64,000 bases of DNA, from NCBI GenBank assembly GCA_022447065.1, contig JAKUUM010000006.1, positions 761-64,760 on the forward strand, in the 5' to 3' direction. Positions 237 to 41,256 of this stretch are shown one piece after another. The stretch is from SAR86 cluster bacterium (lineage in GTDB: Bacteria > Pseudomonadota > Gammaproteobacteria > Magnimaribacterales > Magnimaribacteraceae). A program made the translations under genes and the position numbers. Each line of letters begins with the position of its first letter. The stretch's first letter is position 1. Below the pieces are notes generated by a model. That model did not search any database and was not told where the DNA came from. It saw only the letters and a list, made by a program, of their open reading frames with translations.

Positions 237-1157
237 ATGGATTTTGGAGTTCAGGTTAATGTTTATCGAACCAGCTGGGAAGAAATAAGCGCTTCTGTAA
301 TGGCAATGGAAGCGGGTAATTGGGATAGTGTTTGGTTTGCTGATCATTACATTCCCCCCGGAGCAGACAGGGAACAAGAGGCCCTCACAGCTTTTGAAGG
401 GCTTTCAGCAATTGCGACTGTTGCAGGGATGACCAAAAAACTTCGTTTAGGCAACTTAGTCCTCGGCAATACTTATCGTAATCCTGCGCATGTGGCGAAA
501 ATTGCTGGGACTATTGATACCATGAGCGAAGGTCGTTTTACGCTGGCCATAGGGGCGGGATGGTATCAAAGAGAGCACGAAGCCTACGGTTGGGAATTCC
601 CATCAATGAAAACGCGTCAAGACAGATTCGAAGAAGCCTGTCAGTTAATTCGTGAGTTAATACACAGTAAAGAGCCTGTTGACTTCAAAGGAGAGCATTA
701 TCAAATCGTACAAGGTCAACTTTCGCCTGCTAGCTTTAAAGATCCTATTCCTATTATGGTGGGTGGAACCGGACCTAAAAGAACACTTAGAACCCTAGCA
801 CGTTATGGAGATGTTATGAACCTTGATGGATGGGCAGGTGGAGGAATGTCACTGGAGCACTATCAGAACAAATCATCTATCTTAGAAAAGCACTGTGAAG
901 ATTGGGGGCGTGATCCAAACGAAATCAGAAGAACTTTATTAATGCCCTGTTATCTCACCGACGATCAAAACTTAATTGATAGAGCAGTTAAAGGCTTAGG
1001 ACCTGGCACGGTGGCGGGATCAAAGGATTACATTATTGATCGGATTGGTGAATTTAAAGAGGCCGGCATTGCAGAGATTATGTTTGGGGGTATCCCGTCT
1101 GGAAACGTGAATTTGTTGGAGAAGTTTGATGCAGAAATTCTCAGTGCTTTTAACTAG
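237..1157 (+). CDS. Luciferase-like (LLM class) flavin/F420-dependent oxidoreductase
   Basis: 306-aa ORF. The N-terminal ...NWDSVWFADHY... segment and the overall layout resemble LLM-family oxidoreductases. Confidence 0.65.
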   Translation: MDFGVQVNVYRTSWEEISASVMAMEAGNWDSVWFADHYIPPGADREQEALTAFEGLSAIATVAGMTKKLRLGNLVLGNTYRNPAHVAKIAGTIDTMSEGRFTLAIGAGWYQREHEAYGWEFPSMKTRQDRFEEACQLIRELIHSKEPVDFKGEHYQIVQGQLSPASFKDPIPIMVGGTGPKRTLRTLARYGDVMNLDGWAGGGMSLEHYQNKSSILEKHCEDWGRDPNEIRRTLLMPCYLTDDQNLIDRAVKGLGPGTVAGSKDYIIDRIGEFKEAGIAEIMFGGIPSGNVNLLEKFDAEILSAFN

Positions 1158-1182
1158 TTCTAAACTAGTATTCTTTCAATTT

Positions 1183-2190
1183 TTAATCTAAGTCTAATCG
1201 AACTATACGGGTTCCTATATTCCCACCCGCGAGTAGATCAACAAATGCTGTTGGAGCTGCTTCTAATCCTTTGACTTCGTCAGTTAAAATTTTTAAATCT
1301 CCTAAATCCATCCAACTCATTATTTCTGAACGTGCACGCGCATACTCGCTTGCAAAGTCAAACACAAGAAAACCCTGCATTTGAAGACGTTTATTTATTA
1401 ACAACCCCGGGATCCCTTTGGGACCAGGTTCAGGTGAACTGGTATCGTATTGAGACACAACGCCACAGCAGGCAATACGACCACCCGTGTTCATTCGAAA
1501 TAAAGCCGAACCTAATATCATTCCGCCAGTATTATCAAAGTAGACATCGACCCCGTTTGGTGTTGACTCTTTCAGTGACTGACGAAAATTTGCTTCTTTG
1601 TAGTTTAAGGCACTATCAAATCCTAAATCTGATAGAAGCTTTTCACATTTAACATCAGTACCACAAATGCCCACAATATTACATCCCTTTATTTTAGCTA
1701 TTTGGCCTACCATATGTCCTACCGAACCTGCGGCGGCTGAAACCATTACCGTTTCCCCCTCCTTTGGCTGACCCACTTCCAATAATCCAAAATAAGCCGT
1801 TAATCCATTTATTCCAAGTGGTCCAAGGTAATGCAAAGGATCTCTTCCTTCTGGAATTACAGTTAATGCACCAGTTTTATGAACTGAATAAGATTGCCAA
1901 CCAGTTGGAGCCTGGACTTTCATGCCTACTGGAAAATTTGAATTGTCTCCAGCTATTACTTCGCCAACTCCTAGGCTATTCATGACAACCCCCGTTTGGG
2001 GAGCACCCGCATAACTAGCACTTCCTTGAAGTCCTGCTCTAGTACCTGCGGTAATAGCAAAAGCCATTGTTTTTACTAACACTTCACCCTCAGAAGCTTC
2101 TGGCATAGGTGATTCCACCAATTTATAGTTACTTTCTACCAACTTTCCTTCTGGCAGACTATCAATTAATACTTGTCTGTTTTCTGACAT
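1183..2190 (-). CDS. NADP-dependent oxidoreductase, medium-chain dehydrogenase/reductase family (YncB/CurA/enone-reductase-like)
   Basis: 335 aa with Rossmann motif AAAGSVGHMVGQIAK and an MDR layout without Zn-ligand cysteines. Confidence 0.7.
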   Translation of the reverse strand: MSENRQVLIDSLPEGKLVESNYKLVESPMPEASEGEVLVKTMAFAITAGTRAGLQGSASYAGAPQTGVVMNSLGVGEVIAGDNSNFPVGMKVQAPTGWQSYSVHKTGALTVIPEGRDPLHYLGPLGINGLTAYFGLLEVGQPKEGETVMVSAAAGSVGHMVGQIAKIKGCNIVGICGTDVKCEKLLSDLGFDSALNYKEANFRQSLKESTPNGVDVYFDNTGGMILGSALFRMNTGGRIACCGVVSQYDTSSPEPGPKGIPGLLINKRLQMQGFLVFDFASEYARARSEIMSWMDLGDLKILTDEVKGLEAAPTAFVDLLAGGNIGTRIVRLDLD

Positions 2191-33492: not shown

Positions 33493-34077
33493 TCAGGCTT
33501 CTTCGCGTCTTCTAATTCTATCCCAAGATTTATAACCTATTACGATAATGAAAAGATAGGTAAAAAACAGAAAAGAAGTTAAATAAAGGTCTCTTGACAG
33601 AAAGATGTAAATAGAAATTGAGTCTATTACAAACCAGTAAATCCAATTCTCAAGAACTTTCTTGGCAACCATATAAGTAGTGATAATTGCACCCCAAGTA
33701 GTCAAGGCATCCATGAACGGCAAAGCAGCTTCAGTATATTTTTCTAACATCCATCCAGATCCAAGGGCTAGGAATAGAATCACTGAAATAGCAGATAAAT
33801 GTTCTGAAAGATTCCATGTTTTAACTACCAGTCCTTGGCTGTCACTATTTAGCAGCCACTGCGACCATCCGTAAAATCCCATGACAATGTAAAAAATTTG
33901 TAAACTTGCTTCCATGTAAAGACCAGCCATATACATTACGAAGAGATATAAACAGGAACTCAATATCCAAGCAATCCAACACCAAATATTTTGTTTTACA
34001 GCTAAAACCAAATACAGAATAGCTAAAATCACAGCTGCAATCTCGAGAAGCTTCTCAAGAGAGAGATCAAAAGTCAT
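33493..34077 (-). CDS. PnuC-family transporter, probably thiamine-type (PnuT)
   Basis: 194 aa, polytopic and Trp-rich, with a PnuC-like pattern. Overlaps the stop of the TonB-dependent receptor by 11 nt, so it lies in the TPP-riboswitch operon. Confidence 0.65.
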   Translation of the reverse strand: MTFDLSLEKLLEIAAVILAILYLVLAVKQNIWCWIAWILSSCLYLFVMYMAGLYMEASLQIFYIVMGFYGWSQWLLNSDSQGLVVKTWNLSEHLSAISVILFLALGSGWMLEKYTEAALPFMDALTTWGAIITTYMVAKKVLENWIYWFVIDSISIYIFLSRDLYLTSFLFFTYLFIIVIGYKSWDRIRRREEA

Positions 34078-36187
34078 ATCGCACTAAAATACCCATATGC
34101 CTTGGATCCCCTTGTCTTTCGTAGAGAGCTGGGGAGAAATTAGGGGGTTCGTTACCGAAATAGAAGCCACGAACAGAGTAATAGTTATCGAACAGGTTTC
34201 TTAACCAAAATTCATAATTCCATTGTTCTTTTTTATAACCCAAAACAAGGTTCGATAAAAGGTAAGACTTTGATTTATTTGCATGAGAATCTGAGTAGTA
34301 AAAACTACTTTTACCTGTCATATCAAAGGACAGGTAAATATCGTTCCTTGGCTGCCAGTTTAGTCCAATGGCATAAGTTCGCTTAGGAGCATGGGCTTGG
34401 TCTCTTCCTTCAAGTTCTGGCCGTGATTCGTAACGATTTATTTTCGTTCTGAGAAACCCCACAAAAGAAAAGATGTTTAGATAATCGGTTAAAGCTGCAT
34501 TTAGATTCACTTCAATCCCATAGTTAACACCTTCTGCTGCATTTTGGGTCAGGAAGGAAAAAGTGTTTGGATCGTTAGGGTCAGTTTGAGTTGATATAAG
34601 CACCTGTTGATTTTCTCTATCTGAATAAAAAAGCACTGCGTCTAGACTCAAATTAGAGCTTGGATATCTCGTGTTTATACCAACTTCATAATTCATTAGG
34701 TATTCAGGATCATACATAAGATTCTCGTACGATGAGTTGGGCTGAAGCCCTAGTCCTAAATTGAAACCGCCTGATTTATAGCCTCTGCTAATACTTAAAT
34801 AAAAGTTGGTGTTTTCATGCCATGCTTTTAAAAGAGAGATTTTTCCACCCGACATCTGATTGGATAGCGAAAGGGATTCACCGTATGAATCACTATAATT
34901 TGACTCCCAATCTTCCCATCGAAGACCAAGGATCACCTTTGCTGAAGTCGAAATCAGATATTCAAAATGACCAAAAGCTGCAAGGTTTCTCGAGTCGTAA
35001 TAACTTGACGAAGAAAAGTCAACTTCGTATGGAGGGTAACCGCTAAAAGGGTCTTCGTAAATGCCTTCATCCTTCCTGTCATTTCTTTCTTTTATATCTA
35101 AATAATAAATACCAGTTACCCATTCATGTCTAACGCCTTGATCGAAGTCTGCTCGCTTGGATAAAACCCTAATTTCCTGATTAATAGATTTTCTTGATCT
35201 AATGGTTTCTGAAAAAAAATCATACACATAAGGTGCATTCGTCACAGGATTTCCCCAATCAGCATCGTAGCTAAATATGACGTCTGAATGCGAATAACTC
35301 GACAAACTCTGTAACTCAAATCCTTTTGCCCTATGAAAGATTTTTAAACCATAGGCATTGGTGTCTTGCGAGTCCATACCTGGTTTATCAGAAAGGGTAT
35401 TTAAACTTCCGTCGATGGTCCAAATATCAGCTGGGTCGTTTAGATCAATGTTCATTATCAAGAAATTTAGATCAGTTTTATCATTTACCTCCCAATTAAT
35501 TTTGAAACGTCCAGTGAATTCATCTTTTCTAGATGTATCAGAACGTTGTAGGTAGAGGTTCTTTCGAAATCCATCCATTTGATCTTTTCTTAAAGCAACT
35601 CTGTACTTGAAATTTTGATTTGAGTTAACAGGTCCGCCAAATGCCAGTCCAAGGCTAGCAATACCATAAGATCCAAGATTAACTTCACTATTTCCTTCAA
35701 AAACATCGGTAGGATCTTTACTTTTGATATAGATAAGACCTGCCAAGGCATTAGCACCCATTCTTGCTCCCTGTGGGCCCCGATATACCTCAATTTGCTC
35801 TAAATCAAAGGCAGTAGCTATACCTCCTTGTCCAGAAAAATCTATATCATCAATAATGAATCCGACCGAAGAATTAGGAGTTCCTTCGTAGCCAGATCTT
35901 TCACCAATTCCTCGAATTTGAAAATAGCGAGGTCGGGAGTCACTGCCAGCAAAATTTAAATTTGGTATCAAGAAAGAAAGCTGCTCAAAATGCTTGATTG
36001 GCTGACTCTCAAGCAGTTCTTGATCAAGAATTACAACGCTACCGTCCGTATCTTTAAGCTCAGCTTGTCTCCATGTACCTTTAACAACAATCTCTTCTAT
36101 CTCATCGGTCCTGGCATCAAGACTAAGCCACGAAACAGATAGGATTAAGAAAAAAAAAGTTAATTTAAAATTTAATAGATACGCCAT
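34067..36187 (-). CDS. TonB-dependent outer-membrane receptor (riboswitch context suggests thiamine or a thiamine precursor)
   Basis: 706 aa with a signal peptide and a plug region (EEIVVKGT...LDQELLESQP). Long beta-rich body and a C-terminal ...GILVRYDF with terminal Phe. Confidence 0.85.
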   Translation of the reverse strand: MAYLLNFKLTFFFLILSVSWLSLDARTDEIEEIVVKGTWRQAELKDTDGSVVILDQELLESQPIKHFEQLSFLIPNLNFAGSDSRPRYFQIRGIGERSGYEGTPNSSVGFIIDDIDFSGQGGIATAFDLEQIEVYRGPQGARMGANALAGLIYIKSKDPTDVFEGNSEVNLGSYGIASLGLAFGGPVNSNQNFKYRVALRKDQMDGFRKNLYLQRSDTSRKDEFTGRFKINWEVNDKTDLNFLIMNIDLNDPADIWTIDGSLNTLSDKPGMDSQDTNAYGLKIFHRAKGFELQSLSSYSHSDVIFSYDADWGNPVTNAPYVYDFFSETIRSRKSINQEIRVLSKRADFDQGVRHEWVTGIYYLDIKERNDRKDEGIYEDPFSGYPPYEVDFSSSSYYDSRNLAAFGHFEYLISTSAKVILGLRWEDWESNYSDSYGESLSLSNQMSGGKISLLKAWHENTNFYLSISRGYKSGGFNLGLGLQPNSSYENLMYDPEYLMNYEVGINTRYPSSNLSLDAVLFYSDRENQQVLISTQTDPNDPNTFSFLTQNAAEGVNYGIEVNLNAALTDYLNIFSFVGFLRTKINRYESRPELEGRDQAHAPKRTYAIGLNWQPRNDIYLSFDMTGKSSFYYSDSHANKSKSYLLSNLVLGYKKEQWNYEFWLRNLFDNYYSVRGFYFGNEPPNFSPALYERQGDPRHMGILVRYDF

Positions 36188-36262
36188 CCCTCCGCCATTA
36201 TTATATGGTTCAGGTTCAAAGGGTTCCCTTTAAGATCTCAGGTCAATGACCACCCCTTGTAC
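36188..36262 (-). promoter_or_regulatory. TPP (THI-box) riboswitch
   Basis: The minus strand reads GGGGTGGTCATTGACCTGAGATCTTAAAGGGAACCCTTTGAACCTGAACCATATAATAATGGCGGAGGGATG. It matches the conserved GGGGUG, CUGAGA, ACCCUUUGAACCUGA, AUAAU-loop hairpin and CG.AGGGA blocks. Its 3' GGAGGG abuts the receptor ATG. Confidence 0.85.
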
Positions 36263-36289
36263 TTAGTTGAAATGATAATATAAATTTCC

Positions 36290-37708
36290 CTACTTTTGTT
36301 GAATTTTACCTTTTGAAATAACAATATGAATATCCTGGGTATTCTTAATCTTCTCAAGTGGGCTACTATTCAAAATTACCAGATCCGCGTATTTCCCAGG
36401 ATCAATCGTTCCCATTTTATTGTCTAAATTGAAAAACTCAGCCGGAGTGATTGTTGCTGACCTCAATGCCTGTAAAGGGGTTAGGCCAGCTTCAACCAGC
36501 AACTCCAGTTCTTTGTGTAAACTATATCCAGGGGTGAGGAAACCAATAGGAGAATCAGTGCCAGCTATGATTTTGACGCCGTGTTCATTAAAGAGGCCCA
36601 CGATTTTCAGGCTCCAATCTTCAAAGATTTTATTGTTTTCCAGCACCGGTTGTTGAGCCAGACTAATAGAATCCGCTTGCCAACTTTCCTGAACTTTTTT
36701 GGGCAGAAATTGATAAGTTTCACGCCATTTACTATCGGCAAAAAATCTTTTTGAGCCAACGGTATTGATGGTTAAGGTTGGGGTTTGAAAAACATCATTT
36801 GCAGCCAAATATTTGATGATCCTAGTGCAGCGTGCTTCATCCACATTTTGTATAGCAATGTATCGCTGCGATTGATGAATCCTTGTTCTAAGCGCAGAGC
36901 CAGGAAGGGAATCTGAATTGTTTAACAACAATTTCCTTTGAGCTAAGATTTCTTCCGCATTTTTTGCACAAGCCAGGTCTAGATTTCTAATATGTTGCAT
37001 GCCATCCAGGCCGGCATCAATGGCTTCAATCAAACCGATGCTAAGAGGGATGTGGCTGGTAACCCGCAGATTTTTTTGTTTAGCAATTTCAAGTAAGTTG
37101 AGAAATGTTTTAGCAGACAACATTTCGTATGTTTTTAGGAAAGTAACGCCTTGCTTCACCAGATCATTGACAACAGCTGCAAGGTCAGTGGCTTCATTCA
37201 CGCCGATAGACAACTCAGGGAAGCCTGGTTCTTGTCCTTTGTACACCCTTAGGCTGCCATCGATTAATGGACCTGAATAAAATAGTCTTGGTGTTTTTTC
37301 TGGATTTTCGTTGGCGTAATCTATAGCAGGTTGCAATTTAGTGAGTACCGCCCCCGTATCACGGATACTGGTAATGCCGTTGGTCAGAAATAATGCATAA
37401 GCTGTTTTGTAATCAAGTTCAGGGATAAAAGTCAGATGCACATGCGCATCCCAAAGACCAGGGATCAGAAATTTACCCTTGGCATCAATAACCTTATCAT
37501 CCATTTTGATATCGATAATCTTAGTACTTGATTCTTCAATTGATTCAATGACACCACCCTGTAATACAACGGTCATGTTTTCTCTGACCGGATGGGCCGC
37601 ATCGATCAGTGTGACGTTTTCTATGATGATCCGGGGTGATGCTAAAGCTAGAGAACTGACTAAAAGAAAAGTGAGCATTAAAGAACGGCAAAAAAGACAG
37701 CCCTTCAT
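36290..37708 (-). CDS. Periplasmic amidohydrolase-family metallohydrolase
   Basis: 472 aa with a signal peptide (LMLTFLLVSSLALA), HxH metal motif WDAHVHL and a later GTDSP... region. Confidence 0.7.
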   Translation of the reverse strand: MKGCLFCRSLMLTFLLVSSLALASPRIIIENVTLIDAAHPVRENMTVVLQGGVIESIEESSTKIIDIKMDDKVIDAKGKFLIPGLWDAHVHLTFIPELDYKTAYALFLTNGITSIRDTGAVLTKLQPAIDYANENPEKTPRLFYSGPLIDGSLRVYKGQEPGFPELSIGVNEATDLAAVVNDLVKQGVTFLKTYEMLSAKTFLNLLEIAKQKNLRVTSHIPLSIGLIEAIDAGLDGMQHIRNLDLACAKNAEEILAQRKLLLNNSDSLPGSALRTRIHQSQRYIAIQNVDEARCTRIIKYLAANDVFQTPTLTINTVGSKRFFADSKWRETYQFLPKKVQESWQADSISLAQQPVLENNKIFEDWSLKIVGLFNEHGVKIIAGTDSPIGFLTPGYSLHKELELLVEAGLTPLQALRSATITPAEFFNLDNKMGTIDPGKYADLVILNSSPLEKIKNTQDIHIVISKGKIQQK

Positions 37709-38598
37709 GATCTCCTTCTGTTCAGATGTTTCAACAGCAACTGATCATAGCGACTCTTATCACTATCGTGACCAGGCCGCACGAAAGGCTCCCACTTAGG
37801 CGGTATCCCCTTAGGAGTGTCTCCCATTACGGTGACACGCTGTACCACCCTTTCTTCGTCAAAGTCATTCAGAACCTTGTGTTGGGTACAACGGTTGTCC
37901 CACATAGCTATGGTACCTGCCGCCCAGTGATAACGCATCGTGAAGCTTGGTGTTGCAATCCATTGAGTAAGGTAACCGAGCAAAGATTCACTCTCACTGT
38001 GACTTAGCTCTACGATACGGCGTGTGAAATGTTCGTTGACAAAGAGGGTTTTCTTCCCCGTTACAGGATGGGTGCGTACCACGGGGTGAATAGTCATATC
38101 ATCTGGGTGTCCATGAGGAGCCGCGTTGTGAAGAGCAGTGAGCCCTTGGCATAAGTCACGCAAGGGTGTGGAAAGTTTCTCTAAAGCGAGCTCTGGGTTG
38201 GCCCACAAAGTATCACCACCTATTTTAGGGCACTTAACCATATTGAGGATTGAAAAGAGTGCAGGGTTGGGTCGAAAAGTGATGTCTGAGTGCCACTCGT
38301 CCGCAACACCACCCCGACTGGCAACGAGTTCGAAGATCTTGTCATGCTCGGTGATCGGGTTCTCATAGTGGGGGTGTCCCTCAAGGTCCCCAAAAAGGGA
38401 ACCAAAAGCGACATGTTCATCAACACTGAGAGCCTGATCCGGAAACAAAAGTACTTTATGTTCGATCAGCAGATTTTCGATTGCAGAAGCTCCTTCAGCG
38501 TCCAGTATAGCGAGTTTGACGCCACGAATTTCAGCCCCCAGAGCCGAAGACAGGCGCTTTACCTCGAGGGATTGTGGGTCGAACTTCTGCGTCTTCAT
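37705..38598 (-). CDS. TauD/TfdA-family Fe(II)/2-oxoglutarate-dependent dioxygenase
   Basis: 297 aa. WHSDITF (HxD of the facial triad), the distal His in GTIAMWDNRCTQH, and N-terminal LGAEIRGV typical of TauD. The stop overlaps the next gene's start by 4 nt. Confidence 0.8.
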   Translation of the reverse strand: MKTQKFDPQSLEVKRLSSALGAEIRGVKLAILDAEGASAIENLLIEHKVLLFPDQALSVDEHVAFGSLFGDLEGHPHYENPITEHDKIFELVASRGGVADEWHSDITFRPNPALFSILNMVKCPKIGGDTLWANPELALEKLSTPLRDLCQGLTALHNAAPHGHPDDMTIHPVVRTHPVTGKKTLFVNEHFTRRIVELSHSESESLLGYLTQWIATPSFTMRYHWAAGTIAMWDNRCTQHKVLNDFDEERVVQRVTVMGDTPKGIPPKWEPFVRPGHDSDKSRYDQLLLKHLNRRRS

Positions 38599-38608
38599 TC
38601 AGCTTCTC

Positions 38609-38647
38609 CTATTCAAAACTCTTCTTCATGTACCTTAAAGTATAACT
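38609..38647 (-). promoter_or_regulatory. Conserved leader element, copy 1: TATACT -10-like hexamer plus a 6-codon mini-ORF (MKKSFE) upstream of the TauD-family gene
   Basis: The minus strand reads AGTTATACTTTAAGGTACATGAAGAAGAGTTTTGAATAG. The mini-ORF stop TAG overlaps the AGGAG SD of the main gene. 29/33 nt are identical to copy 2. Confidence 0.45.
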
Positions 38648-38695
38648 TCTATCTTGGTCTAAACTGCTTCTGTGTACCGCGTTAACCATTCGAAG

Positions 38696-39379
38696 CTATT
38701 TTGACGAGTGGTCGTGTTTGCTGTGATCATGTTTTTCTGGCTCTGGGCGCAAGTCTTCAGATTGTTCCGAATCATCGTTTTCATAATTGTCATCATAATG
38801 GCTTGGGATTTCGATGGCTTTACCATCATGTGATTGCTCACTATTTGTTGAATTATCAGTGTGATGCCCCATTCCTTTCGCTCTTGCCAATAAATCCTGG
38901 TACTGGGTTACACCAAGATCAGGCAATTTCTTTATGAACGCCACAACCGGCCAAATGGAGTCATCATCATGCGTTGCACCCCACGCAGGCATACCAGTCA
39001 TTTTGATACCATGCTTAGTTACCCAAAATAGTTCAGCAGATGACATTATCAATGCAGATTCCGAGAGATCAGGTGGAGGAGGATTCAACCCCAGGCCCAT
39101 TGCCTCAGGAGATTGGCCGGGAGCGCCGTGACATCCGAGACACATCTCACTGAAGTCATTAACACCGGCAAGGACCAAAGCGTCATCATGGAGATTTGGC
39201 ACGTTGATATCCTTAGCCGAGCGTTTTATCGAAGCATGAGAAGTCGTCGAAAATAACCAATTGGTGATACTGCTATGTGGTGAGCTTGCACTAATATCAT
39301 AGATACCCGAATACGCAAAACTGACAATAACTAATACACCGATGGTGACGACAATAATAAAAGATCTAATTTTTTTCAT
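38696..39379 (-). CDS. Membrane-anchored mono-heme c-type cytochrome with a His/Asp/Glu-rich C-terminal tail
   Basis: 227 aa with an N-terminal TM, heme motif CLGCH and HGIKMTGMPAWG (Met-ligand region). The tail reads GMGHHTDNST...EKHDHSKHDHSSK. Confidence 0.7.
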   Translation of the reverse strand: MKKIRSFIIVVTIGVLVIVSFAYSGIYDISASSPHSSITNWLFSTTSHASIKRSAKDINVPNLHDDALVLAGVNDFSEMCLGCHGAPGQSPEAMGLGLNPPPPDLSESALIMSSAELFWVTKHGIKMTGMPAWGATHDDDSIWPVVAFIKKLPDLGVTQYQDLLARAKGMGHHTDNSTNSEQSHDGKAIEIPSHYDDNYENDDSEQSEDLRPEPEKHDHSKHDHSSK

Positions 39380-39835
39380 AATTATCTCTGTATTTGTTTT
39401 CAGTTTAATATACCTTGTGTGGAGTCAGTATTCCTGTGTTTGATTACTTTGACAGTCCATAAAATTCAGCCATCAGAATAGATGCCTGTTCCGTGTGTAG
39501 CTGCTCTGATAAAACATTTCTCAACAGTTGAGTTTAAGTGCTTGTTTCTAGACTTACAGCTAGAGAGGGTAGAATAGAACAATTAATTGAGAGAATTATC
39601 CAGAAATGATTATGAACATATTATATTTGGTTGTGGGATTAATATTAATATCAATACCTACTACGATTTTTGCTGAGGGCATGTGCCTTTGCATTGTAAG
39701 GTCTTTCCTAGGCTTCTAAGACATATTAAAAGAAATCACATAGACCTCACCTGCATCAGTAAGTGTGTTGTGCTGCTGTTTGTATACTTTAAAGTGTAAT
39801 TTCCTTTTCGGTCTAATCTACTTTGCTTATAAGTC

Positions 39836-40063
39836 TCAAATCAATTCTTTTAATTTGTCTAGACCTCTTTTTATAGGATTTTCTTTCTTCTCTTCTTTTT
39901 CTTGCTTTTCTTTCTCTTCTTTCTCATCTTCTTTTTCATTAACGCCATGAGGGGGATCTAATGAAAAAGGAGTCGGGAATAGGGTTGCTAAAGCATTTTT
40001 AGATAGATCGTAAGTAGAAAGCAATCTTTCAACATCTATTGTTGTAGGATTTTCTTTTTTCAT
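39836..40063 (-). CDS. Small acidic protein with an E/K-rich low-complexity segment (75-aa model; the track's 108-aa model starts at 40162)
   Basis: MKKENPTTIDVERLLSTYDLSK...EKEDEKEEKEKQEKEEKKENPIKRGLDKLKELI. The ATG at 40063 lies 4 nt after the stop of the upstream 39-codon ORF. No family recognised. Confidence 0.3.
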   Translation of the reverse strand: MKKENPTTIDVERLLSTYDLSKNALATLFPTPFSLDPPHGVNEKEDEKEEKEKQEKEEKKENPIKRGLDKLKELI

Positions 40064-40067
40064 TGAT

Positions 40068-40187
40068 TTATTTCTGCCCCTTACGTCCTTGGTTTGGTGA
40101 TCTCGATTTACTTCCTTTCCCATCCCTACTACGATCTGTTTTTTCTCCGTGTTCAAAACCATATTTCTTTTTATTAAAGCCTTTCAT
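40068..40187 (-). CDS. 39-aa highly basic Gly/Lys/Arg-rich peptide (not in the track)
   Basis: MKGFNKKKYGFEHGEKTDRSRDGKGSKSRSPNQGRKGQK. GGAGAG lies 9 nt upstream of the ATG, and a degenerate copy of the leader element lies upstream. It is in a different frame from the track ORF. Confidence 0.25.
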   Translation of the reverse strand: MKGFNKKKYGFEHGEKTDRSRDGKGSKSRSPNQGRKGQK

Positions 40188-40315
40188 AAATCAAAACTCT
40201 CCAACACCAACTATAACAAACTACTGTGTATTAACGGTCAATTAACTTTAGGAAACGCTACTGGGATAGTGAAGCAAAGTGATTTGGTTAGGATTTAGAA
40301 CTAGTTATGATGAGG

Positions 40316-40573
40316 TTATTTATTGTTGTCCCTACTTTCTCTTTTTTTTAAATCTCTGGGTGTAAAATCTCTAGTAGGCGTAAAGTCTCTGGTAGGTGTA
40401 AAGTCTCTAGGTCTATACTCTTTTGGTCTAATTGCCACCAGCTGGTAAATAAGCTCTTCAAAACTATCCAGAGCCTTTCTAACAAAATTTTCTACTTTGG
40501 CAGATTTTTCTTTTACACTTTTTTCTACTTCGTCAGCCACTGAAGTAGAGAAATCTTTTTTTCTTTGTTTCAT
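40316..40573 (-). CDS. 85-aa charged protein with tandem RDFTP(T) repeats, function unknown
   Basis: MKQRKKDFSTSVADEVEKSVKEK...RPRDFTPTRDFTPTRDFTPRDLKKRESRDNNK. Preceded by leader element copy 2. Confidence 0.4.
   Translation of the reverse strand: MKQRKKDFSTSVADEVEKSVKEKSAKVENFVRKALDSFEELIYQLVAIRPKEYRPRDFTPTRDFTPTRDFTPRDLKKRESRDNNK
40351..40414 (-). repeat. About 3.5 tandem copies of an 18-nt coding repeat
   Basis: Plus-strand units are aatctctgggtgtaa, aatctctagtaggcgtaa, agtctctggtaggtgtaa and agtctctaggtct. They encode the RDFTPT units. Confidence 0.8.
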
Positions 40574-40612
40574 TCAGTTAAAACTCTTCATCATGGATTT
40601 TAAAGTATAACT
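40574..40612 (-). promoter_or_regulatory. Conserved leader element, copy 2: TATACT hexamer plus a 6-codon mini-ORF (MMKSFN) abutting the start of the 85-aa ORF
   Basis: The minus strand reads AGTTATACTTTAAAATCCATGATGAAGAGTTTTAACTGA, followed directly by the main ATG (TGAATG). Confidence 0.45.
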
Positions 40613-40692
40613 ACCTTCTCAGGCTTCCGATTGTAATTATGTTCAATTACTGTATAAACTTAAGTTGATTACATGTTTTTTTGGAGAGGATT

Positions 40693-41256
40693 ATGTACTT
40701 CAGATTTTTATTAACCTTAAGTCTTTTCTGTGCACCGTTATTATTTGGTGCTCATCATGAATCTTCTGCTAAGGCGGAATATTCGACGAACGAAATTATT
40801 GATATTGCAATGTCGGCTGCCCCGTCAAATGTGAGTTCTGTTGCTACCATTATTGATTCTACCGGTAAGGTACTGAGAGAGGGTTCCAATGACTGGACTT
40901 GTATGCCAGGAACACCGCCCAATGAAAATGTTAATCCAATGTGCGTGGACAAAGCCTGGCAAAAATGGTTGCAAGCCTTTATGGAACAAACTCCCTATAA
41001 CTCTGAAAATGAATCCTTAGGAACGTCTTACATGTTGATTGGAGATCAGGCTGTAGATAATGATGACCCATTTAATACTGATAGATCTAAGGGTACCTGG
41101 ATTACTGAGGGGCCACACCTTATGCTCTTACTTCCGGAAAGTTTGATGAGCAATCTACCCACCGATCCTTATGCAGGGGGGCCTTACGTAATGTTTAAGG
41201 GTAGTGATTTTGTGCACGTAATGGTGCCTTTAGAAACTACTAAACTTTCAAATTAA
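40693..41256 (+). CDS. Secreted protein of unknown function
   Basis: The ATG at 40693 is preceded by GGAGAGG (the track's TTG start is at 40681). Signal peptide MYFRFLLTLSLFCAPLLFGA. Two Cys (WTCMPG, PMCVD). No family recognised. Confidence 0.5.
   Translation: MYFRFLLTLSLFCAPLLFGAHHESSAKAEYSTNEIIDIAMSAAPSNVSSVATIIDSTGKVLREGSNDWTCMPGTPPNENVNPMCVDKAWQKWLQAFMEQTPYNSENESLGTSYMLIGDQAVDNDDPFNTDRSKGTWITEGPHLMLLLPESLMSNLPTDPYAGGPYVMFKGSDFVHVMVPLETTKLSN

Follow-up and report, generated by a model that had tools for sequence, protein, structure and literature searches.

A pair of 33-nt repeats in a SAR86 genome and a dispersed intergenic module with features of a portable expression signal

Two 33-nt repeats that lie upstream of unrelated genes in a SAR86 genome are best explained, with a probability we put at roughly 0.55, as diverged long-form copies of a dispersed intergenic module carrying a promoter, 5′ UTR and ribosome-binding site in a strain-variable cassette region. 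The module would most likely express whichever gene stands behind it. It is predicted to contain an extended −10 promoter for which a −35 box is unnecessary, transcription starting about 7 nt past the −10, at or near GGAGAG, and a 5′ UTR of about 25–30 nt with a strong Shine-Dalgarno (SD) sequence ahead of the start codon. It is set in one orientation between small genes, in strain-variable, cassette-like regions, and probably doubles as a homology patch where genes are exchanged. In the window, the 64,000-nt stretch of DNA analysed here, a canonical copy precedes a 39-aa ORF, and long-form copies precede an 85-aa ORF and a compositionally foreign TauD-family gene; relatives of the 85-aa gene have a canonical copy in the corresponding position. 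The promoter assignment is inferred from matches to consensus patterns. Coordinates are collected in Table 1.

Table 1. Positions of genes, repeat copies and sequence signals in the window
Feature	Position	Strand	Remarks
TauD/TfdA-family dioxygenase gene	37705..38598	−	GC 0.50, GC3 0.50
Mini-ORF 1	38609..38629	−	ATG AAG AAG AGT TTT GAA TAG (MKKSFE*)
Long-form copy 1 with 5′ flank	38615..38669	−	TTTAGACCAAGATAGA + AGTTATACTTTAAGGTACATGAAGAAGAGTTTT; 33-mer at 38615-38647
TATACT, −10-like hexamer of copy 1	38639..38644	−	preceded by AGT, not TGn
Cytochrome c gene (PF13442)	38696..39379	−	upstream of copy 1; C-terminal tail rich in His
Partial fourth copy	39785..39823	−	AAGTAGATTAGACCGAAAAGGAAATTACACTTTAAAGTA; near-perfect palindrome TACACTTTAAAGTATA inside
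Two small ORFs	39836..40187	−	39 aa, 40068-40187; 75 aa, 39836-40063 (108 aa from 40162)
Canonical module, full unit	40189..40299	−	nhmmer E = 4e-10 at 40179-40234
Extended −10 of canonical unit	40210-40218	−	TGTTATAGT
85-aa ORF	40316..40573	−	family of 26 clusters
Mini-ORF 2	40574..40594	−	ATG ATG AAG AGT TTT AAC TGA (MMKSFN*)
Long-form copy 2	40580..40619	−	33-mer at 40580-40612; TATACT at 40604-40609
Sigma-70-like TTTATA-17-TACAAT, upstream of copy 2	40630..40658	−	consensus match only

An earlier note on this DNA had reported that the two 33-mers agree at 29 of 33 positions, and we confirmed this on the minus strand, where copy 1 (38647→38615) reads AGTTATACTTTAAGGTACATGAAGAAGAGTTTT and copy 2 (40612→40580) reads AGTTATACTTTAAAATCCATGATGAAGAGTTTT. 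Extending the alignment to 38615-38654 and 40580-40619 gave 33 of 40 identical positions. The copies, which are direct repeats 1965 nt apart, form the sole direct pair in the 64-kb window with at least 29/33 identities; the analytic chance expectation for such pairs is 4.8e-4, the top matches in dinucleotide shuffles (n = 8) reached just 25–27/33, and a Smith-Waterman alignment between the two intergenic regions reached a score of 46, whereas no shuffle exceeded 25 (0/2000). The best-conserved block between them (13/13) is upstream of the mini-ORF ATG. Copy 1 occupies the 97-nt gap between the cytochrome c and TauD genes; copy 2 lies between the 85-aa ORF and the divergently oriented gene for a 187-aa secreted protein. 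As described, each stands immediately in front of a start codon, and the two genes are unrelated. A partial fourth copy, at the end of the small-ORF block nearest cytochrome c, agrees at 29 of 39 positions with copy 1, over its 5′ flank and 5′ half (1/2000 shuffles). No further long-form copies were found in the window, in the other SAR86-like loci compared or in IMG/VR viral contigs. Neither of the two long-form copies folds better than shuffled sequence or has an Rfam match, and no 5′ arm was found upstream of either.

The shorter sequence at 40188-40217, GTTATAGTTGGTGTTGGAGAGTTTTGATTTATG, precedes the 39-codon ORF; it had been described as related to the long copies, which it is, and it proved to be a canonical member of a dispersed family. 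The family consensus is (T/A)GAGTT-TGnTATAGT-(T)GGTGTT-GGAGAGTTTTGATT-AGGGGGAGATT-ATG, and the unit in the window consists of a 5′ arm beginning TCTAAATCCTAACCAAATC, the core TGT TATAGT TGGTGTT GGAGAGTTTTGATT and the T-ATG of the 39-aa ORF. Scanning metagenomes with this third copy's 20-nt core, whose positions are conserved by construction, returned 74 loci, about 26 of which (marine, GC 0.32–0.40) keep the whole module well past the queried 20 nt. The orientation of the core relative to the following ORF is constant and the distance from GATT to the start codon is 10–11 nt in most copies, while the ORFs behind the module have at least 14 unrelated N-termini and mostly lack a Pfam match. Full units are about 110 nt long, beginning 5–20 nt past the upstream stop and ending about 10 nt short of the following ATG; many copies lack the 5′ arm and comprise just the 3′ 45 nt. 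Arrays are present in L150, L132 and L166, and in L133 a tRNA gene adjoins a copy. A canonical copy also occurs in L130, which encodes MCH2264677; this protein falls in the accession series of the window's own proteins (SAR86 MAG accessions MCH2263965-89), so L130 and the window probably belong to one MAG.

The case for a promoter comes from positions outside the search pattern. TG is kept in 27 of 27 canonical copies, the n of TGn is mostly G (23 copies, with A in 2 and one each with C and T), and the hexamer is TATAGT in 25, with A2 and T6 retained in both deviants. Constancy of TG beside a variable n is as expected of an extended −10 promoter. The proposal that TATACT of the long form is a −10 fits the family, canonical relatives having the conserved TGnTATAGT at the corresponding place. 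In the long form TATACT follows AGT where canonical copies have TGn, and a usable −35 is missing; as a promoter it may be weak or dead. A better sigma-70 match than the TATACT of copy 2 lies 20 nt upstream; were TTTATA-17-TACAAT an alternative promoter, the whole of copy 2 would fall within the 5′ UTR. Near-identity over about 40 nt across unrelated contexts exceeds what a promoter needs and is a sign of recent spread, of gene conversion or of a role in recombination. The 5′ halves of full units, moreover, are of two sequence types, both complementary to the conserved 3′ half, and a plain promoter model leaves this unexplained.

What ties the long form to the family is the half containing GAAGAGTTTTGA, the SD and the ATG, which it shares with the canonical module. 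Copy 1 (AGAGTTTTGAATAGG) matches the consensus AGAGTTTTGATTAGG at 14 of 15 positions (8/2000 shuffles). Copy 2, from GAAGAG to the gene, is collinear with GGAGAGTTTGGATTGAATGG (L106), GGATAGATTTGATTGAATGG (L182) and GGAGAGTTTTGACTGAATGG (L194), modules that all precede homologues of the 85-aa gene; its 3′ half is orthologous to them. The spacer between the TATACT-like −10 and GAAGAG is 13 nt in the long form versus 6 in the canonical form, and the mini-ORF ATG is located within the 7 extra nucleotides. A profile built from the canonical core misses the long forms in nhmmer searches, homology of the 5′ halves (GTTATACTT versus GGTATAGTT plus a 7-nt gap) lacks statistical support, and MAFFT favoured an ungapped alignment.

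Both mini-ORFs read as the earlier note had given them. The TAG of mini-ORF 1 overlaps AGGAG (38610-38606), 7 nt before the TauD ATG, and the TGA of mini-ORF 2 directly adjoins the ATG of the 85-aa ORF. The repeat, its placement and the shorter related copy all stood, and the −10 reading fitted the family, but the central idea, that a conserved six-codon peptide serves the block as a common sensory leader, was not supported. The element belongs to a repeat family found before many unrelated genes, and homologous loci lack it or have a short form without the ATG: the relatives of TauD and of cytochrome c have unrelated flanks and no element, some 85-aa homologues follow a hydrolase gene with no element, one (L181) is behind a different TATAAT promoter, and those in L106 and L182 are behind the short form without ATG. 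Since its ATG sits in the extra spacer, the mini-ORF is most likely a by-product of the long-form variant.

On the leader model, the short frame would be translated from ATG (long forms, L194) or GTG/TTG (canonical copies), possibly on a near-leaderless mRNA, and would couple or tune translation of the main gene by terminating at its SD or ATG. The frame (start)-(G/A)AG-AGT-TTT-(GAT/GAA/GAC/AAC)-stop is indeed open in every variant and terminates 0–9 nt from the main ATG in all of them (TAG GGG GAG ATT ATG, TAG|ATG, TGA|ATG, TGATG, or TTA TGA overlapping ATG A). The independent variant L194 has an ATG start (ATG GAG AGT TTT GAC TGA|ATG), no optimally spaced SD is present where the module adjoins the ATG (85-aa family, 39-aa ORF), and a transcript starting 7 nt past the −10 would put the ATG at +1 to +6. 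An open frame is trivial, however, because the 20-nt stretch is near-identical throughout, with TAG or TGA lying within the conserved GATTAG/GATTGA. An ATG occurs in just 3 of about 32 distinct members of the family, canonical copies offering TTG or GTG alone, without an SD; the differences between the window copies are all non-synonymous (K→M, E→N; 0 synonymous), and homologues of the TauD, cytochrome c and 85-aa genes manage without the mini-ORF. Known leader peptides and uORF attenuators (trpL, pheL, ermCL, stop–start coupled uORFs) resemble the module in having a tiny ORF that lies just upstream of the main gene's initiation region and terminates on it, but in the module neither peptide nor ATG is conserved across relatives, and there is no ribosome-binding site for the short frame, no regulatory codon run and no alternative terminator/antiterminator structure. 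We regard a translated leader as quite improbable.

A strain variant, L010, supports the strain-variable setting of the favoured module and also bears on a different alternative. L010 encodes an identical TauD protein and lacks the 85-, 39- and 75-aa ORFs; there GAGTTTTGATT runs straight into the sequence upstream of cytochrome c, a different ORF and two units are present, and homology returns right after the module. The indel between the window and L010 begins exactly past GAGTTTTGATT, with GTAGATT at the end of the inserted block. Such boundaries would suit a module that is mainly a recombination or mobility element, an attC-, MITE- or REPIN-like imperfect palindrome for cassette insertion and excision, with secondary promoter and RBS features; the 33-mers would then be the right-hand arms of sites, now decayed, on either side of the cytochrome c and small-ORF segment, in keeping with their direct-repeat arrangement. 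Full units span nearly the entire intergenic gap, their 5′-arm types AAACCCTAACCAAACCTCCC and CCAATGAAACTCTCCTTAGCCCTATCCA both complement one conserved 3′ arm with single-base bulges, and the arms pair in the consensus fold and in the DNA minimum-free-energy folds of several units (z = −3.9 for L166, −2.3 for L146, −1.7 for L153). Arrays spaced at 700–1300 nt, very high identity between copies and the tRNA neighbour in L133 are also consistent with it. Yet for most units folding does not improve on that of shuffles (z −0.3 to +1.3; +0.27 for the window unit), the consensus fold, at −9.3 kcal/mol, is weak and without real covariation, no target-site duplications were seen, and the 5′ arm is missing from the many 45-nt copies and undetectable upstream of the long forms. 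The 3′ arm reads GATT or ATTAGG in place of the attC triplet GTT, and no integrase is among the Pfam-annotated genes in about 20 kb around TauD. Conservation that continues through the SD to the ATG suits an expression signal more than a crossover site, and we consider a chiefly recombinational role rather unlikely.

Two further readings concern the long form itself. Its copies could be functionless scars of illegitimate or homologous recombination that joined acquired genes into the region, with expression by read-through and from the genes' own SDs. The patchwork of differences from L010 (an ACACTT-flanked 30-nt indel, a 95-nt indel and the cassette indel), the missing TG and −35, and the lack of a terminator between cytochrome c and TauD agree with this, but both copies end equally close to a start codon and copy 1 supplies TauD's only SD, making the scar reading very improbable; both copies are also identical in all 10 examined contigs encoding identical TauD, although these contigs are such close relatives that the agreement says little. 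A little less probable still is that the 5′ half is an operator, an imperfect palindrome TATACTTTAAAGTATA overlapping the −10-like box, at which a dimeric regulator would co-control the 85-aa gene, the cytochrome c leader and TauD. Three sites within 2 kb (38629-38644, 39783-39798 and 40594-40609) have 1–3 mismatches to the 16-nt palindrome, with 1.2 matches expected across the entire window, and the identical 13/13 block AGTTATACTTTAA spans one half-site. These sites are homologous copies and not independent, however; copy 2 retains one half-site only (10/16 self-complementary), canonical copies lack the palindrome, no other long-form copy was found, and the nearest regulator gene, of LysR type, is about 9 kb away.

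For an expression module of the kind we favour, the closest match in way of working is PeSL (promoter-early stem-loop), a promoter-bearing repeat between small, strain-variable, unrelated ORFs in the hyperplastic regions of T4-type phages, thought to mediate cassette shuffling through recombination. The SAR86 module differs in lying on a bacterial chromosome, with no match in IMG/VR or GenBank phages, and in having an extended −10, a fixed 5′ UTR with SD and an unconvincing stem-loop. Integron cassette arrays and attC sites (including CALINs) share small promoter-proximal ORFs in one orientation, intervening repeats of about 110 nt with imperfectly complementary, bulged ends, and strain presence/absence bounded by the repeat; the absence of the invariant GTT of the R′ core, the lack of an integrase among the annotated genes in about 20 kb around TauD, conservation past the core site to the SD and ATG, and the mostly shuffle-level hairpins set the module apart. 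Correia/NEMIS (Neisseria) and similar MITE-like repeats (ERIC, RUP) are imperfect palindromes of about 100–150 nt, dispersed between genes and often co-transcribed, with −10-like boxes toward the ends from which an adjacent gene can be driven. Full SAR86 units resemble these in length, in their complementary arms and in having TGnTATAGT near the 3′ end, but they keep a single orientation at a fixed 10–11 nt from the start codon, include an SD, lack a target-site duplication, cluster in variable gene blocks and often occur as the 3′ 45 nt alone.

A foreign payload also fits the favoured module. GC3 is 0.50 in TauD versus about 0.30 in neighbouring genes, so TauD was probably acquired horizontally. 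The 85-aa ORF is a real protein family, in which the N-terminal 55 aa are conserved and the number of RDFTPT repeats varies. The closest non-identical relatives of the cytochrome c (63–74%) include genomes of 53–55% GC.

The 33-nt element duplicated upstream of the TauD gene and of the 85-aa ORF is not a sensory leader specific to TauD or to its block, but a variant, now diverged, of a junction module dispersed in SAR86. The repeat itself is real, as the earlier note had proposed, and non-random. Its two long-form copies, of pattern TATACTTTAANNNNCATGANGAAGAGTTTT, agree at 29 of 33 positions and, on extension, at 33 of 40. They form the only direct pair at ≥29/33 within the 64-kb window, against an expectation from base composition of ~5e-4 pairs. 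The best match in eight dinucleotide shuffles reached only 25–27/33, and local alignment of the two intergenic regions scored above all 2000 shuffles; a chance match of 33-mers was ruled out on these statistics. The window also contains the shorter third copy noted earlier ahead of a 39-codon ORF, and a partial fourth copy that matches copy 1 and its 5′ flank at 29 of 39 positions (1/2000 shuffles). The 5′ half of the long form, which the partial copy shares, forms an imperfect palindrome, TATACTTTAAAGTATA, present at three sites in 2 kb where 1.2 would be expected in the whole window.

Features of the repeat-bearing region, in minus-strand order
Feature	Position	Strand	Details
187-aa secreted protein gene		divergent	
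Copy 2 (long form)	40612-40580	-	AGTTATACTTTAAAATCCATGATGAAGAGTTTT
Mini-ORF 2	40594-40574	-	ATG ATG AAG AGT TTT AAC TGA; abuts ATG of 85-aa ORF
85-aa ORF	40316-40573	-	
Full repeat unit		-	
Canonical-core profile match (third copy)	40179-40234	-	
Extended -10 of canonical copy	40210-40218	-	TGTTATAGT
39-aa ORF	40068-40187	-	
75-aa ORF		-	
39-nt internal direct repeat	39852-39890 and 40023-40061		77% identity; AAAGAAAATCCTA twice; in 75/108-aa ORF region
Partial fourth copy	39785-39823	-	
Non-coding DNA, ~450 nt	39380-39835	-	5′ of cytochrome c
Sigma-70 match	39648-39620	-	TTAATA-17-TATAAT; good match, in the non-coding DNA
Cytochrome c	38696-39379	-	His/Asp-rich C-terminal tail (HDHSKHDHSSK)
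Copy 1 (long form)	38647-38615	-	AGTTATACTTTAAGGTACATGAAGAAGAGTTTT
Mini-ORF 1	38629-38609	-	ATG AAG AAG AGT TTT GAA TAG; TAG lies inside TAGGAG, which supplies the Shine-Dalgarno of TauD
TauD	37705-38598	-	
Amidohydrolase		-	
TPP riboswitch	36170-36267	-	Rfam RF00059, 60 bits
TonB-dependent receptor	34067-36187	-	
PnuC-family transporter	33493-34077	-	

The window derives from a SAR86 cluster bacterium MAG, in which the TauD, amidohydrolase, TonB-dependent receptor, methyltransferase and other proteins correspond to NCBI MCH2263965-89. TauD is a compositional outlier (GC 0.50, GC3 0.50, versus a GC3 of ~0.30 in neighbouring genes) and cytochrome c is intermediate (GC3 0.40). The nearest relatives of both are found in genomes of 47–55% GC, and the two genes were probably acquired horizontally, and recently, by the SAR86 genome. 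The sigma-70 match in the non-coding DNA 5′ of cytochrome c would mean either that the leader is unusually long or that a small RNA lies there unannotated. The TPP riboswitch, the only riboswitch nearby, stands directly 5′ of the TonB-dependent receptor and PnuC genes, and this arrangement suggests an operon for uptake of thiamine or a thiamine precursor.

If the repeat were a sensory leader shared by the block, it should accompany these genes elsewhere. An identical TauD protein is encoded on at least 22 marine contigs; the ten that were read are uninformative because copy 1 is identical in all of them. For TauD relatives in GTDB genomes (≤77% identity, GC 47–68%) the upstream DNA is unrelated. 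The nearest non-identical relative of cytochrome c is at 74%, and on the two contigs read, from relatives at 68% and 63% identity (53–55% GC), the gene has other neighbours. With flanks unrelated in the relatives, an element travelling with TauD or cytochrome c was ruled out, and since homologues of the 85-aa ORF occur without the element or without its ATG, the proposal of a shared sensory leader was not borne out.

The 85-aa ORF belongs to a genuine protein family of 26 clusters that neither Pfam nor NCBIfam recognises. Conservation covers the N-terminal 55 residues, with variable extreme N-termini (MKQRKK, MEERKK, MNEEKK, MNQEKK), and a C-terminal RDFTPT/KDFTPT repeat ranges from 2 to 4 units. 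Members are found 7–8 nt after an alpha/beta-hydrolase gene with no element (metagenome loci L091-L105 and L183), after an unrelated TATAAT box (L181), after the short form of the repeat (L106, L182, L194) and, only in the window's own clade (L102), after the long form. The gene has at least four genomic contexts and so resembles a mobile cassette in its own behaviour. In L181 (~215-250) the homologue is preceded by CATTATAATGTACTTATAA-ATG, in which a consensus TATAAT lies 11 nt ahead of the ATG and an SD is missing, which suggests a leaderless or near-leaderless mRNA in that strain.

One of the contigs with the identical TauD protein, L010, is a strain variant. It lacks the 85-, 39- and 75-aa ORFs and carries a different 109-aa ORF with two repeat units; ...GGAGAGTTTTGATT is joined directly to the region 5′ of cytochrome c, and homology with the window picks up again at ACACTT(A/G)CTGATGCAGG. 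The stretch is therefore strain-variable, with the repeat at its breakpoints. The non-coding DNA 5′ of cytochrome c is ~95% conserved in L010, with the exception of a 95-nt indel and a 30-nt indel that has ACACTT flanks.

The dispersed nature of the module became apparent in a metagenome scan with GGTNTTGGAGAGTTTNGATT, the core common to the window's third copy, L010 and L106. Of the 74 loci obtained, ~26, all marine and of 32–40% GC, share sequence far beyond the 20 bases searched; the remainder are chance matches in high-GC or coding DNA. The shared module reads (T/A)GAGTT TGG TATAGT (T)GGTGTT GGAGAGTTTTGATT AGGGGGAGATT ATG, in which the search itself fixes the 20 core positions and only the flanks are informative, and many true members share ~60 nt more upstream of it. 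In all copies the ORF that follows is on the same strand, starting 10–11 nt after GATT in most and 1–2 nt after it in a few. These ORFs are mutually unrelated (zinc-ribbon/YbjQ, tail-anchored membrane and several signal-peptide proteins, among others), and for most of them Pfam gives no match. On L150, L132 and L166 a profile of the core picks out two or three copies, 700–1300 nt apart. The protein adjoining the copy in L130, MCH2264677, shares its accession series with the proteins of the window and probably comes from the same SAR86 MAG, in which case the family would be dispersed within this genome.

The relationship of the long form to this canonical form is clearest in its 3′ half. In copy 1, 14 of 15 positions of AGAGTTTTGAATAGG(AG) agree with the consensus, AGAGTTTTGATTAGG(GG) (8/2000 shuffles), and copy 2, GAAGAGTTTTAACTGAATGAAACAAAGAAAAAAAGATTTC, is collinear with the DNA ahead of homologues of the same gene in L106 (GGAGAGTTTGGATTGAATGGAAGAAAG...), L182 (GGATAGATTTGATTGAATGG) and L194 (GGAGAGTTTTGACTGAATGG). 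The 5′ half, (A)GTTATACTT, resembles GGTATAGTT, with 13 nt to GAAGAG instead of 6; MAFFT preferred an ungapped alignment of the two forms, and homology of the 5′ halves is plausible, not statistically established. An nhmmer profile of the canonical core detected only the third copy in the window and missed the long forms, so what ties the two forms together is the 3′ half and the orthology of copy 2.

What the module might do is suggested by the flanks of its core. A scan for a sigma-70 -35/-10 pair belonging to the element itself found none, no -35 being present, and this led us to consider an extended -10 promoter. The search pattern covered neither the hexamer nor the bases just ahead of it. 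All 27 canonical copies have TG three bases ahead of the hexamer, while the base in between is not fixed (G, 23; A, 2; C, 1; T, 1). In 25 of the 27 the hexamer reads TATAGT, and A2 and T6 are retained in the two exceptions, GATAGT and TACACT. Canonical copies thus carry the extended -10 sigma-70 pattern (TG at -15/-14, any base at -13, TAnnnT), and the flank pattern is what marks an extended -10 promoter (TGnTATAAT), a type that works without a -35. Transcription would start ~7 nt downstream of the hexamer, at GGAGAG, giving a predicted 5′ UTR of ~25–30 nt that ends in a strong SD, AGGGGGAG. Both long-form copies read AGT-TATACT and match the pattern only in part: the TATACT that the earlier note took for a -10 is present, and the TGn before it is replaced by AGT. 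From these sequence signals, the junction module most likely supplies a promoter, 5′ UTR and RBS to genes of strain-variable cassette regions, including the horizontally acquired TauD.

An alternative is that the six-codon frame within the repeat is a translated leader that couples translation of the main gene. Both mini-ORFs read as described in the earlier note, including the overlap of the first stop with the SD of TauD and the abutment of the second on the ATG of the 85-aa ORF. In every junction type the frame ends 0–9 nt from the main ATG (TAG GGG GAG ATT ATG, TAGATG, TGAATG, TGATG, TTATGA), and there is no well-spaced SD where the module directly abuts the ATG. Conservation argues against a leader peptide, in that the short ORF as a whole (start, frame and peptide) is not preserved at orthologous loci. 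An ATG start occurs in only 3 of ~32 distinct family members, the two window copies and L194 (ATG GAG AGT TTT GAC TGA); among homologues of the 85-aa gene behind the short form it is absent from L106 and L182; canonical copies read TAG followed by TTG GTG TTG GAG AGT TTT GAT TAG in the same frame, and the mini-ORF ATG falls in the extra spacer of the long form. The two window mini-ORFs differ by non-synonymous changes, their best-conserved block (13/13) lies upstream of the ATG, and the short frame has no SD, no regulatory codon run and no alternative structure. Leaderless initiation at its ATG would hinge on the position of the transcription start. Folds of both long-form copies gave z of -1.5 to +1.1 versus shuffles, ruling out a stable RNA structure in either leader, and no terminator-like site was found on the minus strand at 38400-40900. 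Much of the frame's ending follows trivially from the conserved GATTAG/GATTGA, so we regard translational coupling as highly improbable.

A role in recombination or mobility, which would be compatible with one in expression, is live but secondary, and we consider it unlikely. It is raised by the architecture of the full units, reminiscent of attC sites, MITEs or REPINs. These units are ~110 nt long, start 5–20 nt after the upstream stop codon and have one of two unrelated 5′ arms (types i and ii; AAACCCTAACCAAACCTCCC... or CCAATGAAACTCTCCTTAGCCCTATCCA...), both complementary, with single-base bulges, to the conserved 3′ part (GGAGAGTTTTGATTAGGG; TGGTATAGTGG...GGAGAGTTT) over ~16–35 nt. The ends pair, with bulges, in MFE folds of L131, L150, L153, L178, L146 and L166, but only L166 (z = -3.9) and L146 (z = -2.3) fold clearly better than shuffles; the window unit gave z = +0.27, and the alifold consensus of -9.3 kcal/mol is weak and without covariation, in sequences too similar to inform a covariation test. 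Moreover, many copies consist of the 3′ 45 nt alone, and the 5′ arm is also absent from the long forms. Where attC sites have R″ RYYYAAC and R′ GTTRRRY cores, the type-i 5′ arm has CCCTAAC, the type-ii arm CCAATG, and the 3′ arm reads TTTTGATTAGGG, with ATT in place of GTT. No integrase or recombinase is present among the Pfam families of genes called in the ~20 kb around TauD (L001); module-bearing contigs are mostly too short to judge. Without a GTT core, and with no integrase in that annotated interval, a canonical integron attC was ruled out. MITE and REPIN insertions show target-site duplications, either orientation and variable distance to genes, whereas the module has no duplicated flanks that we could see, a single orientation relative to the downstream ORF and an ATG at 10–11 nt (or 1–2 nt) after GATT. 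Comparison by eye with the dif consensus gave no Xer/dif-like site. At the edge of the variable block in L010 (~540-680), a short frame, ...ERQKIGIKRALDNGAKFGRKTIIDD..., is similar, judged by eye, to the junction region of a serine recombinase/resolvase; Pfam gave no hit on the 47-aa fragment, and it was dropped as evidence.

A more specific version, which we hold to be quite improbable, is that SAR86 has a cassette-exchange system of its own. The ~110-nt imperfect palindromes would be its junction units, analogous to attC with a different core and a putative recombinase; the complementary arms would act as recombination sites, and the right arm would carry the extended -10 promoter, 5′ UTR and SD. 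A captured gene, such as the foreign TauD, would then be expressed on arrival, with the short frame ending at the main start codon possibly part of the expression device. If recombination does occur, cassette indels should be bounded exactly by GAGTTTTGATT in many strains, with a linked recombinase, and the module would amount to a new cassette system.

To return to the module as a source of expression signals, in working principle it comes closest to the PeSL modules of T4-type phages and to MITE-like repeats that carry promoters, for example Correia elements; architecturally it partly resembles integron cassettes, whose defining attC core it lacks. A phage origin (a T7/SP6-like promoter or PeSL proper), to which a few resemblances by eye had pointed, was rejected: IMG/VR holds five chance core matches in apparently coding DNA without module flanks, no true copy and no match to the long form, and GenBank phages and PLSDB plasmids have no module match. 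Rfam returned nothing relevant at E ≤ 5 for 38300-41000 of the window or at E ≤ 1 for six canonical loci, ruling out a known RNA family or riboswitch as the element's identity. Literature on SAR86 repeats, islands, integrons, MITEs and promoters yielded no relevant description, and, as far as we have found, this nearly invariant expression module is apparently undescribed. A sensory leader peptide, as proposed, would have established a new class of regulation, which the evidence does not support; what the evidence reveals is a module ahead of numerous small genes, unrelated to one another, in the flexible part of the SAR86 genome. These streamlined bacteria are among the most abundant uncultured marine heterotrophs. 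A portable promoter/RBS would explain how newly acquired genes are expressed in a streamlined genome with few regulators, and would provide a sequence tag with which to locate the hypervariable cassette regions of metagenomes, as well as a promoter that might serve in genetic tools for the lineage.

Two further observations concern the module's surroundings. A family of small tail-anchored membrane proteins directly follows canonical modules in L118, L121, L139, L150, L154, L164 and L177. Its C-terminus is conserved (...KSKGMVLTDIDLPFGRVFWVTVQFFVAGL...) and its N-terminal domains are very different (CxxC zinc-ribbon-like, or acidic and EELTPRE-rich). In each case a secreted protein comes next, its signal peptide being near-identical (MKKTSLTLSILLLFAGG or ...LLATNAWA), and the pair looks like a polymorphic two-gene system. 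In L133 a tRNA gene (1120-1192, minus strand) lies ~180 nt upstream of a canonical module, and near position 2700 of L166 a tRNA-like 5′ fragment (GGTCCGGTAGCTCAGCTGGAT), not called as a tRNA by ARAGORN, precedes a module; the variable regions may lie at tRNA-linked island hotspots.
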